A stretch of 64,000 nt of DNA, from the NCBI RefSeq assembly GCF_044647545.1, contig NZ_CP172818.1; one strand, 5' to 3'. This document shows, piece by piece, positions 36,237 to 42,182 of the stretch; the stretch's first letter is position 1, and the number at the start of each line of letters is the position of its first letter. Below the pieces are notes generated by a model. That model ran no database searches, was not told the DNA's origin, and was given only the letters and a program-made list of their open reading frames with translations. A program made the translations under genes and the position numbers. The DNA is from Escherichia coli. Lineage in GTDB: Bacteria; Pseudomonadota; Gammaproteobacteria; Enterobacterales; Enterobacteriaceae.

Positions 36237-37046
36237 TCACCCCTGCAATATTTTGTCCATCACGCGCCCCGGCAGCAGGCGCTTAAGCACCATTACTGCC
36301 CAGGTCACCAGCGTTACCGGATAGCGCATCTTCGGCTTCTCGCTAATAAAAGCATGGCGCACTTTGTCGACCACCGCTTCCGGTCCTAACGTAAAGCGGG
36401 CGGCGATGCCGGGATTTTCGACTGGTTTATCACTTTGCGTCTGGTTGACGTTGTCGGTGAAGCGAGTACGAATGGGACCAGGTTCGATCAGGCTGACTTT
36501 AATTCCGCTGTGGCGCAGCTCCATGCGCAGTGCGTCTGACCACGCCTCCAGCGCATATTTACTGGCCGCGTAAGCGCCACGACCCGGTGTGGAGATTAAT
36601 CCCATCACCGATGAGGTCATCACAATACGCCCTTCACCGTGCGGCAACATCGCGGGTAACAGGCGCATGGTGAGCTGGTGTGCGCCGAAAAAGTTGGCGG
36701 AAAACTGCTGTTCCATCTGCGCACGGCTGATGGTGGAAAGGGGGCCATACATGCCGAATCCGGCATTGTTAAAGATCCCATACAGACAATTATCGGTCAG
36801 GGCGATCACTTCGTCGGCTGCGCGATCAACACATTCTGGCGAATCCAGATCGATCAACACGCCGGTAAATCCCATGCTGTTCATGCGCTCAACATCATCC
36901 GCTTTCCGGCAACCTGCCAGCACATGAAAACCCTGGCGTTTTAATTCGAGCGCGCTTTCCAGGCCAATTCCACTGGAACATCCGGTAATTAAGACCGATT
37001 TTTGCATAACTTTACCTGTCAGGATCTCCGTTGCTTTATGAGTCAT
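36237..37046 (-). CDS. ybbO: Short-chain dehydrogenase/reductase YbbO
   Basis: 269-aa ORF with TGCSSGIG Rossmann motif and YAASK catalytic motif. Confidence 0.93.
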   Translation of the reverse strand: MTHKATEILTGKVMQKSVLITGCSSGIGLESALELKRQGFHVLAGCRKADDVERMNSMGFTGVLIDLDSPECVDRAADEVIALTDNCLYGIFNNAGFGMYGPLSTISRAQMEQQFSANFFGAHQLTMRLLPAMLPHGEGRIVMTSSVMGLISTPGRGAYAASKYALEAWSDALRMELRHSGIKVSLIEPGPIRTRFTDNVNQTQSDKPVENPGIAARFTLGPEAVVDKVRHAFISEKPKMRYPVTLVTWAVMVLKRLLPGRVMDKILQG

Positions 37047-37662
37047 GATTTACTAAAGGCTGCAACTGCTTCGCCATCCAGTCGGCAATAAACGGCTGGG
37101 CGTCGCGGTTGGGATGAATACCGTCATCCTGCATCCATTGTGGTTTGAGGTAGACCTCTTCCATAAAAAAGGGCAGCAGCGGAACATCAAACTCTTTGGC
37201 GAGTTTGGGGTAAATGGCGCTAAAGGCTTCATTATAACGGCGACCATAGTTTGCAGGCAGACGTATTTGCATTAACAATGGTTCAGCGTTGGTGGCTTTG
37301 ACCTCCTGCAAAATCTGGCGCAGCGTTTGCTCGGTTTGTTGTGGCTGAAAACCACGCAAACCGTCATTGCCGCCCAGTTCAACCAGCACCCAACGCGGCT
37401 GATGCTGTTTCAGCAGAGCCGGAAGGCGCGCCAGCCCTTGTTGCGAGGTGTCGCCGCTGATGCTGGCATTGACTACCGACGTTTTACTCTGCCACTTATC
37501 ATTCAACAAGGCAGGCCAGGCCGCGCTGGCAGACATTCGATACCCGGCGCTCAGGCTATCACCCAGAATCAATAACGTGTCCGCTGCAGCGGCACGGAAG
37601 GTTAACAGGACCAGGAACAGGAAGGGCAAATGCCAGCGGAAAACATTGTTGAAGTTCATCAT
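37036..37662 (-). CDS. tesA: Periplasmic acyl-CoA thioesterase I / lysophospholipase L1 (SGNH hydrolase) TesA
   Basis: Track ORF 37036..37692 trimmed to ATG at 37662 (MMNFNNVFRWHLPFLFLVLLTFRAAAADTLLILGDSLSAGY, GDSL motif). Confidence 0.94.
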   Translation of the reverse strand: MMNFNNVFRWHLPFLFLVLLTFRAAAADTLLILGDSLSAGYRMSASAAWPALLNDKWQSKTSVVNASISGDTSQQGLARLPALLKQHQPRWVLVELGGNDGLRGFQPQQTEQTLRQILQEVKATNAEPLLMQIRLPANYGRRYNEAFSAIYPKLAKEFDVPLLPFFMEEVYLKPQWMQDDGIHPNRDAQPFIADWMAKQLQPLVNHDS

Positions 37663-38312
37663 CTTAAGAAGTCCGTCGGTCAGGGGGAGCATGAACTCTC
37701 CATCCTCACCGGAGTTGAGCTGGTTGTCAAACGTGGCGAGACCATCGCGCTGGTGGGCGAGTCGGGATCGGGTAAGTCAACCTTGCTGGCGATCCTCGCC
37801 GGGCTGGATGACGGCAGCAGTGGCGAAGTAAATCTGGTGGGACAACCGCTACATAATATGGACGAAGAAGCGCGGGCAAAGTTACGCGCGAAGCACGTAG
37901 GTTTTGTTTTTCAGTCATTTATGTTAATTCCTACCCTTAACGCGCTGGAAAACGTCGAGCTTCCGGCGCTGCTGCGCGGTGAAAGTAGCGTGGAAAGTCG
38001 TAACGGGGCAAAAGCGTTGCTCGAACAGTTAGGACTGGGTAAACGTCTGGATCATCTTCCGGCACAGCTTTCCGGCGGCGAACAGCAACGAGTGGCGCTG
38101 GCGCGAGCTTTTAATGGTCGGCCTGATGTGCTGTTTGCCGACGAACCCACCGGCAATCTTGACCGCCAGACGGGCGATAAAATTGCCGACCTGCTGTTTT
38201 CCCTCAACCGTGAACATGGCACCACGTTGATTATGGTGACCCACGACCTGCAACTGGCGGCACGCTGCGACCGCTGCTTACGGCTGGTGAACGGGCAGTT
38301 GCAGGAGGAAGC

Positions 38313-38316
<4 letters not shown>
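37630..38316 (+). CDS. ybbA: ABC transporter ATP-binding protein YbbA
   Basis: 228-aa ORF with Walker A GESGSGKST and signature LSGGEQQR; 5' end overlaps the divergent tesA 5' end by 33 nt. Confidence 0.94.

Positions 38317-42182
<3,866 letters not shown>

Follow-up and report, generated by a model that had tools for sequence, protein, structure and literature searches.

Do the divergent genes tesA and ybbA of Escherichia coli share coding sequence at their 5' ends, and if so, does this arrangement set the expression of one gene against that of the other? We examined this question in a window of E. coli DNA (the whole stretch analysed, 64,000 nucleotides long; all positions below refer to it unless another record is named). 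The locus lies on the chromosome around 37630-37662, in the order cnoX-ybbO-tesA on the minus strand and ybbA-ybbP on the plus strand. We found the region in 5418 of 5426 complete E. coli genomes, several of which matched it at 100% identity (e.g. FDAARGOS_497). Compared with K-12 MG1655, it was colinear across ybbO-tesA-ybbA, with 98.2% identity and no indels.

The ybbA coding sequence (37630..38316, plus strand) encodes the ABC ATPase of the YbbAP transporter (228 aa) and shares a 4-nt ATGA with ybbP at its 3' end. The tesA coding sequence (37036..37662, minus strand) encodes 208 aa in the K-12 annotation, or 207 aa when counted from 37659. TesA is a periplasmic lipid hydrolase and YbbA is the ATPase of its partner transporter; TesA binds YbbP, and TesA and YbbAP together form a type VII ABC transporter-hydrolase complex (PLoS Biol 2025, PMC12646458). 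The pairs tesA-ybbO and ybbA-ybbP are two functionally linked operons placed head-to-head.

Extent of the coding overlap and its start codons

The initial annotation described tesA and ybbA as overlapping head-to-head at their 5' ends over 33 nt. The overlap itself was confirmed by the sequence and by both the MG1655 and the RefSeq/PGAP annotation. The MG1655 reference places tesA at 519139..519765 (minus strand) and ybbA at 519733..520419 (plus strand), which gives an overlap of 33 nt (37630..37662 on both strands), with the first tesA ATG at 37662. For a strain that is 100% identical, RefSeq/PGAP places the tesA start at 37659, one codon further in, and the overlap is then 30 nt. The length of 33 nt therefore holds as the K-12 annotation but not as the conserved extent, because 18 of 83 species have ACG in place of the first tesA ATG (37662), which the other 65 keep. 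The conserved dual-coding core comprises 30 bp (37630..37659, both strands) and includes codons 1-10 of ybbA and codons 1-10 of tesA counted from 37659. With 5' coding ends that share 30 or 33 nt, tesA and ybbA form a divergent overlapping coding pair.

Read from 37630 on the plus strand, ybbA begins with ATG CCA GCG GAA AAC ATT GTT GAA GTT CAT CAT, and the reverse complement read from 37662 on the minus strand begins tesA with ATG ATG AAC TTC AAC AAT GTT TTC CGC TGG CAT. The two frames have common codon boundaries, in which position 1 faces position 3 and position 2 faces position 2, so that no site of the overlap is silent for both genes. Residues 1-26 of TesA form a cleaved signal peptide, of which the overlap encodes the n-region alone (MMNFNNVFRWH). 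Since all the solved TesA structures have their first residue at 26-28, the overlap codes only for a part of TesA that is cleaved off.

We compared the start codons in 83 enterobacterial genomes, which comprised one genome per species, Salmonella and a relative with 69% identity. The ybbA ATG at 37630 was present in all 83 genomes, the YbbA N-terminus MPAEN was invariant in 81 Enterobacteriaceae genomes, and 37630 is the first ybbA start codon past the upstream in-frame stop. The YbbA sequence matched chain YbbA of PDB 9GE6-9GE8, and the solved homologues LolD, MacB, MJ0796 and BceA aligned to YbbA from residues 5-9 onward; thus, no start further downstream in ybbA would give a complete ABC domain. 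The second tesA ATG (37659) was also found in 83 of the 83 genomes. This conservation supports 37659 as the probable tesA start, and this comparison-based support is added by the present analysis. From these comparisons, both start codons appear to be genuine and not mis-annotated. Neither tesA nor ybbA was found in the translation-start tables of Nakahigashi 2016.

The duplex energies with the anti-Shine-Dalgarno sequence, computed for each candidate start, were -7.0 kcal/mol for ybbA, -3.2 kcal/mol for tesA 37662/37659, -0.9 kcal/mol for a TTG at 37629 and -8.4 kcal/mol for an ATG at 37692. The last two are alternative tesA starts that would abolish or extend the overlap, and both are weighed below together with the transcript data.

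Signals embedded in the partner gene

As there is no intergenic DNA, each ribosome-binding site sits in the coding sequence of the partner gene. The ybbA Shine-Dalgarno sequence AGGAAGGG (37619..37626, plus strand) lies within the codons of the tesA signal-peptide h-region (PFLF), and the stretch 37612-37629 that holds it was almost invariant in 81 genomes. The tesA 5' UTR (37663..37694, minus strand; 32 nt) lies within ybbA codons 12-22, between the start site (37694) and the ATG (37662), and contains a weak Shine-Dalgarno core, GGA, at 37672-37674. This start site was mapped by Kim et al. 2012 (PMC3415461, supplement) at 519021 of U00096.2, with 45 reads and a 32-nt leader, which corresponds to 37694 in the window.

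In the 50 nt upstream of this start site we recognised a sigma-70 promoter, composed of a perfect -35 element TTGACA (37725..37730, minus strand) within ybbA codons 32-34 (GTT GTC AAA) and, after a spacing of 17 bp, a -10 element GAGGAT (37702..37707, minus strand) within ybbA codons 25-26. TTGACA was kept in 82 of the 83 species, and its ybbA codons (GTT GTC AAA) showed no variation at their third positions. The -10 element read AAGGAT in 57 species and GAGGAT in 25 (nAGGAT in 82 of 83). The conservation of both elements at ybbA synonymous sites shows that this promoter, although embedded in coding sequence, is under selection; for this promoter, within ybbA codons 25-34, the conservation-based support is a contribution of the present analysis. 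A promoter and terminator scan of 37300-38000 with a threshold of at least 4 of 6 matches per hexamer found nothing, including no terminator-like site; it missed the mapped tesA promoter because the -10 GAGGAT falls below that threshold. The RpoD genomic SELEX of Shimada 2014 mentions the ybbP-rhsD spacer alone and not the tesA/ybbA region.

We measured third-codon-position entropy in 79 full-length ybbA and 64 full-length tesA orthologues. In ybbA, it was 0.14 bits in codons 1-10 (opposite the tesA coding overlap), 0.53 bits in codons 11-21 (opposite the tesA 5' UTR) and 0.45 bits in codons 22-34 (opposite the tesA promoter), compared with 1.11-1.14 bits in the rest of the gene, which has nothing opposite. 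The suppression opposite the tesA 5' UTR was seen in ybbA codons 12-18. In tesA, it was likewise 0.14 bits in codons 1-10 (opposite the ybbA coding overlap), 0.61 bits in codons 11-17 (opposite the ybbA Shine-Dalgarno sequence) and about 1.0 bits in the rest, with nothing opposite. The first window of tesA and that of ybbA had the lowest entropy among all the equal-size windows in either gene. The overlap carries the signature of purifying selection on two frames, that is, the loss of synonymous variation. With this signature and its universal start codons, it is no artefact of a chance ORF.

Across 81 genomes, a near-invariant block extended from about 37612 to 37690. An Rfam search of 36900-41400 matched no family, and folding compared with shuffled sequence indicated no unusual RNA structure in the tesA 5' region (z = +0.81) or in the ybbA 5' region (z = -0.14). 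With no RNA element detected, dual coding and the two ribosome-binding sites explain this near-invariant block of 80 nt.

We also examined relatives through a representative search and contig look-ups, with gene starts taken from automatic calls. In every relative examined, the genes for the hydrolase and the ABC ATPase were divergently arranged. The start-to-start distance was -30 nt in Salmonella (TesA 88% identical to that of E. coli), -33 nt in the relative with 69% TesA identity, -2 nt (CATG) at 53%, 0 nt at 47%, +17 nt at 44%, +25 nt at 41% and +52 nt at 51%. Gaps from -33 to +52 nt are too small for two promoters, which suggests that the mutual embedding of signals is ancestral. The n-region of the TesA signal peptide is short in distant relatives (MIKRF..., MKKLF...) compared with the enterobacterial MMNFNNVFRWH, and the enterobacterial YbbA has 1-5 more residues before the Walker A motif than its distant relatives. 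From this we infer that the overlap probably arose by an outward movement of both start codons, which would have left TesA with an unusually long signal-peptide n-region and YbbA with some additional N-terminal residues. The tight divergent linkage of hydrolase and transporter is ancient, and the enterobacterial overlap is its end-point.

Overlapping transcripts and competing explanations

The initial annotation had proposed that each promoter lies within the coding sequence of the partner and that the 5' ends of the two mRNAs are complementary, had seen in this a mere possibility of antisense effects or transcriptional interference, and had pointed to start-site data as a check. Published start sites agree with the first proposal: tesA starts at 37694 (45 reads) from a promoter inside ybbA, and two weak start sites assigned to ybbA lie on the plus strand inside tesA, at 37475 (2 reads, 155-nt leader) and at 37243 (2 reads, 387-nt leader; Kim 2012, PMC3415461). 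An additional plus-strand start site, labelled 'antisense' by Dornenburg et al. and sequenced 6 times, is given at 37658, within the overlap, in Table S1 of Huang 2020 (PMC7373196); since this position is past the ybbA ATG, its RNA cannot encode YbbA. The published plus-strand 5' ends disagree (37062, 37243, 37475, 37568 and 37658), and synonymous-site conservation was found around none of them. A candidate ybbA -10 element, TATCAC at 37557-37562, was rejected: it coincides with the catalytic GDS codons, and neither of the two synonymous sites in it is well conserved. Neither tesA nor ybbA is mentioned in the SMRT-Cappable-seq supplement of Yan 2018, and KPN_00472 and KPN_00473 are absent from the K. 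pneumoniae start-site table.

The complementarity of the 5' ends is likewise well documented, and the transcripts of the two divergent units overlap in published data. The dsRNA MS-118 of Lybecker et al., captured with J2 and classed as 'Divergent' for tesA,ybbA, covers 125 bp on both strands (37568..37693), with a right-hand boundary at the tesA start site (as entered in Huang 2020 Table S1, PMC7373196). In stationary phase, the p19-captured RNase III dsRNA cluster 52 ("5' & Full") spans 37357..37630 on both strands, more siRNA duplexes reach down to 37167, and the paired duplexes measure 21-22 nt (Huang 2020, PMC7373196). Published p19 capture thus indicates that the overlap forms dsRNA that is processed by RNase III. 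The operon map of Conway et al. 2014, again as entered in Table S1 of PMC7373196, has a divergent operon overlap of 789 nt (37062..37851, both strands), in which the ybbAP unit on the plus strand begins at 37062 and the unit on the minus strand at 37851. Finally, ExcludonFinder (PMC12288877) places tesA-ybbA among 16 E. coli divergent excludons present in at least 50% of 58 transcriptomes, a membership that is based on coverage overlap only and not on anticorrelation.

The p19 reads over tesA amounted to 182-2396 RPM, compared with about 5-80 for the neighbouring genes, and total RNA over tesA comprised 48.7 RPM antisense against 29.7 RPM sense, with about 1 RPM antisense for other genes (Huang 2020, PMC7373196). 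In the same data, the antisense reads over tesA exceeded the ybbA sense reads per kb. These reads and the several plus-strand 5' ends would fit a separate antisense regulator of tesA, distinct from the ybbA mRNA, although neither an Rfam match nor a terminator-like site in 37300-38000 was seen for one.

Two of the alternatives that we weighed concern the start of tesA. Some gene callers choose the TTG at 37627..37629 (minus strand; Leu12), which would give a 197-aa TesA and zero overlap, so that the coding sequences would merely abut. That the overlap is such an annotation artefact seems to us highly improbable. Many database TesA entries do have 197 aa, KPN_00472 of K. pneumoniae MGH78578 is annotated with 594 nt vs 627 nt, and the Shine-Dalgarno pairing of 37659/37662 is weak; however, 11 of the 83 species have TGG, CTG or CTT in place of the TTG, compared with the universal ATG at 37659, the TTG is essentially without a Shine-Dalgarno sequence, and a start there would leave the signal peptide without its charged, basic n-region. 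We therefore rejected the TTG, and even if it were the true start, each gene would still harbour the promoter and the ribosome-binding site of the other. The other alternative start is the upstream in-frame ATG of a 218-aa ORF (37690..37692, minus strand), for which the initial annotation had suggested a still larger overlap. This suggestion did not find support: the codon is not conserved (ATG in 45, GTG in 27, CTG in 8, TTG in 2 and TGC in 1 of the 83 species), and with the mapped tesA start site just 2 nt further upstream, a 218-aa form is not to be expected from that transcript. With CTG or TGC in 9 of 83 species and codons that mirror the CAN (His/Gln) of ybbA codon 21, we rejected it as a general tesA start. 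In E. coli, this ATG has a good GGAG 5 nt upstream, which is specific to E. coli and missing from the main tesA transcript, and it could be used on longer transcripts there. The minus-strand start of Conway et al. at 37851 (Huang 2020 Table S1, PMC7373196) would imply a second, upstream tesA promoter whose transcripts include this GGAG-ATG, and an overlap of 63 nt with a 218-aa pre-TesA could then exist on some E. coli mRNAs. The anti-Shine-Dalgarno pairing of this ATG, the best of all the candidate starts, and an open frame with ATG, GTG or TTG in 74 of 83 species would fit such a form. We nevertheless consider it improbable, given that the main start site removes the Shine-Dalgarno sequence, that the start-like codons follow ybbA codon 21, that the three codons at the beginning of the extension vary freely at position 1, that GGAG becomes GGAA or GGAT in most relatives, and that an n-region of 21 residues is atypical.

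The remaining alternatives concern the effect of the overlapping transcripts. The tesA sense RNA was unchanged when RNase III was mutated (29.7 RPM in the wild type, 27.2 RPM in rnc-14 and 27.4 RPM in rnc-38; Huang 2020, PMC7373196), and TesA and YbbAP form one complex, for which co-expression is expected. For these reasons a mutually exclusive excludon switch seems to us less likely than mild tuning or dampening, or than neutrality. In a true switch, convergent transcription and RNase III would make the expression of tesA-ybbO and of ybbAP mutually exclusive. The ExcludonFinder listing, the capture of dsRNA from the locus with both J2 and p19, and antisense RNA as abundant as sense over tesA all speak for it; we still regard it as unlikely, since the two rnc alleles leave tesA sense RNA as it is, mutual exclusion would defeat the function of a hydrolase that binds YbbP and acts with YbbAP, and the listing does not include anticorrelation. 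Another reading, which we treat as possible but rather doubtful, is that genome compaction and drifting start codons produced the overlap as a neutral by-product without regulatory effect, with the dsRNA as noise of pervasive weak intragenic promoters. The overlap codes for a loosely constrained, cleaved n-region and for five YbbA residues that precede the ABC domain, relatives cope with gaps of -2 to +52 nt, the plus-strand start sites are weak and unconserved, and the rnc mutations are without effect. Sequence alone does not separate this reading from tuning; on the other hand, the tesA promoter in ybbA is clearly under selection, so that part of the embedded signals is functional, and the p19 signal of tesA is 20-100x that of its neighbours. 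Finally, the face-to-face promoters could be a selected device for the stoichiometry or timing of a complex, in which plus-strand transcription across all of tesA, at a level equal to that of the tesA mRNA, and RNase III cleavage would set the TesA:YbbAP ratio or couple it to an envelope or lipid signal. We give this idea little credence; if it were true, the excludon geometry would keep partners in balance instead of setting antagonists against each other.

The explanation that we consider probable as a whole is a conserved overlap with face-to-face promoters and dsRNA, which would at most tune or dampen expression. The common 30 (33) bp are read on opposite strands, as YbbA codons 1-10 and as codons 1-10 (1-11 in K-12) of the TesA signal peptide. 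According to this explanation, transcription into ybbAP begins at a weak plus-strand site, or several such sites, within tesA, so that the two promoter sets face each other and their transcripts overlap by at least about 125 nt, perhaps by about 790 nt. The overlapping transcripts pair into dsRNA, which RNase III then cuts. Interference and dsRNA cleavage would tune or dampen expression at most, chiefly that of the weaker ybbAP unit, and the pair would not act as an on/off excludon switch. We infer that the regulatory effect is small, on the basis of a single RNA-seq data set, obtained under one condition, and of reasoning from the protein complex.

Significance and relation to known systems

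The feature is already known and structurally rare. The overlap is part of the reference annotation, four or more genome-wide data sets already in print contain overlapping transcription and dsRNA at this locus, and the arrangement is mentioned in the 2025 YbbAP-TesA structure paper. The data sets on divergent overlaps that include tesA-ybbA itself are Lybecker 2014, Conway 2014, Huang 2020 and ExcludonFinder 2025. The structure paper (PMC12646458) treats the same genes and uses their arrangement only as evidence of functional linkage; start sites, dsRNA and synonymous constraint are not examined there. As a discovery, the locus thus carries little weight, because the overlap had been annotated and its overlapping transcription and dsRNA published.

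It does have practical consequences for strain construction. A deletion, an N-terminal tag or a codon optimisation of tesA or ybbA at the native locus alters the start, the ribosome-binding site or the promoter of the partner. The engineering of 'leaderless tesA' (TesA with its signal peptide deleted) at the native locus likewise alters ybbA signals, and the Keio tesA knockout takes out the upstream region of ybbA.

The excludon concept was reportedly defined by Sesto et al. in 2013 in Listeria monocytogenes. As in the Listeria excludons, a long transcript of one gene is antisense to its divergent neighbour at tesA/ybbA. The Listeria excludons link opposing functions with reciprocal expression, and the common function of tesA and ybbA argues against that. 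Among the E. coli divergent excludons, asd-yhgN, rsd-nudC and acrA-acrR resemble this pair, with divergent neighbours, 5' transcript overlap, dsRNA and RNase III products. In contrast to most of the listed E. coli divergent excludons, where only the 5' UTRs overlap, it is the coding sequences of tesA and ybbA that overlap, without intergenic DNA, and unlike the listed pairs their products are partners in one complex and not antagonists.

Short antiparallel coding overlaps in prokaryotes were reportedly the subject of work by Rogozin et al. in 2002. Like these overlaps, the one between tesA and ybbA would have been created by start-codon movement and kept by purifying selection on both frames, and it falls in their rarest class. 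In E. coli, only 2 of 663 overlapping pairs are divergent, and overlaps with a multiple-of-three length are also uncommon (Huvet & Stumpf 2014, PMC4161906). With about two divergent coding overlaps in all of E. coli, the tesA/ybbA pair offers a clean example of this rare class.

Plus-strand RNA across tesA and the ybbA start

In the total RNA-seq data of Huang 2020 (PMC7373196, Table S1c), tesA (37036-37662) was covered by 48.7 reads per million (RPM) in the antisense (+) orientation and by 29.7 RPM in the sense orientation, and these antisense counts should be read with caution given that the strand column of that table appears scrambled for neighbouring genes. The sense signal of ybbA was 21.7 RPM over 687 nt, which per kb is lower than the antisense reads over tesA (same table). 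Because the antisense signal over tesA exceeded both the tesA sense signal and, per kb, the ybbA sense signal, the counts suggest that some of the plus-strand RNA over tesA forms an antisense species of its own, or that this RNA is attenuated before ybbA. A start site reported by Dornenburg et al., sequenced 6 times, was located at 37658 (+), inside the tesA/ybbA overlap. As the ybbA ATG is 28 nt upstream of this site, RNA starting there cannot encode YbbA; the only parts of tesA to which it would be antisense are the 5' UTR and the start codon.

Sequence elements upstream of and within tesA

The ATG at 37692 (-), upstream of tesA, is non-conserved. In E. coli it is preceded by a good Shine-Dalgarno sequence (GGAG at 5-nt spacing, -8.4 kcal/mol; 37692-37701, minus strand), which shares bases with the -10/discriminator region of the tesA promoter. 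This sequence would be relevant only to mRNAs that start further upstream, for instance at the promoter of Conway at 37851. The frame upstream of tesA was shifted by 1 nt in a single case among the 83 enterobacterial genomes compared, Citrobacter amalonaticus AUH_CA_2023_1 (locus L038). The -35/-10 register of this genome was also 1 nt off, with TGACAA and AGGATG at the expected positions, and the shift probably derives from ybbA, through either an indel or an error in sequencing.

Towards the 3' end of tesA, we detected an island of low synonymous variation at 37082-37088 (codons 191-193, QPFIADWMA), where the 7-codon mean of third-position entropy was 0.42-0.49 bits vs 0.95. The ybbO start (37046) follows ~40 nt downstream of the island, and the plus-strand promoter position of Conway (37062) is ~20 nt upstream of it; the island could represent a signal for ybbO translation or part of an embedded promoter.

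An unmatched segment between ybbP and mnmH

A segment of 354 nt (40702-41055), located between the ybbP 3' end and mnmH, had no counterpart in any of the 5426 complete E. coli genomes searched, while its flanks matched such genomes at 99-100%. At this position, the closest genome carries a 613-nt spacer rich in REP/terminator sequences. The segment is of low complexity, purine- and G-rich (gggagagagcaagagggcgggggcagcgaaaaaggggggg... plus an A12 run), and the Rfam search gave no match for it. Only its final ~60 nt (40990-41051) were similar to a short unannotated repeat that occurs in chromosomes of E. coli and in plasmids of enterobacteria. Altogether, the segment has the appearance of an error of assembly or of inserted DNA, either foreign or synthetic. 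With the segment in place, ybbP lacks its final 9 codons and stop codon (...GKALFRQFAG*), so that its ORF stays open as far as 41186 (957 aa vs 804).

Co-directional overlaps

The tesA stop and the ybbO start overlap by 11 nt (37036-37046), and the ybbA stop and the ybbP start by 4 nt (ATGA, 38313-38316). Both are ordinary co-directional overlaps, typical of translationally coupled operon genes.
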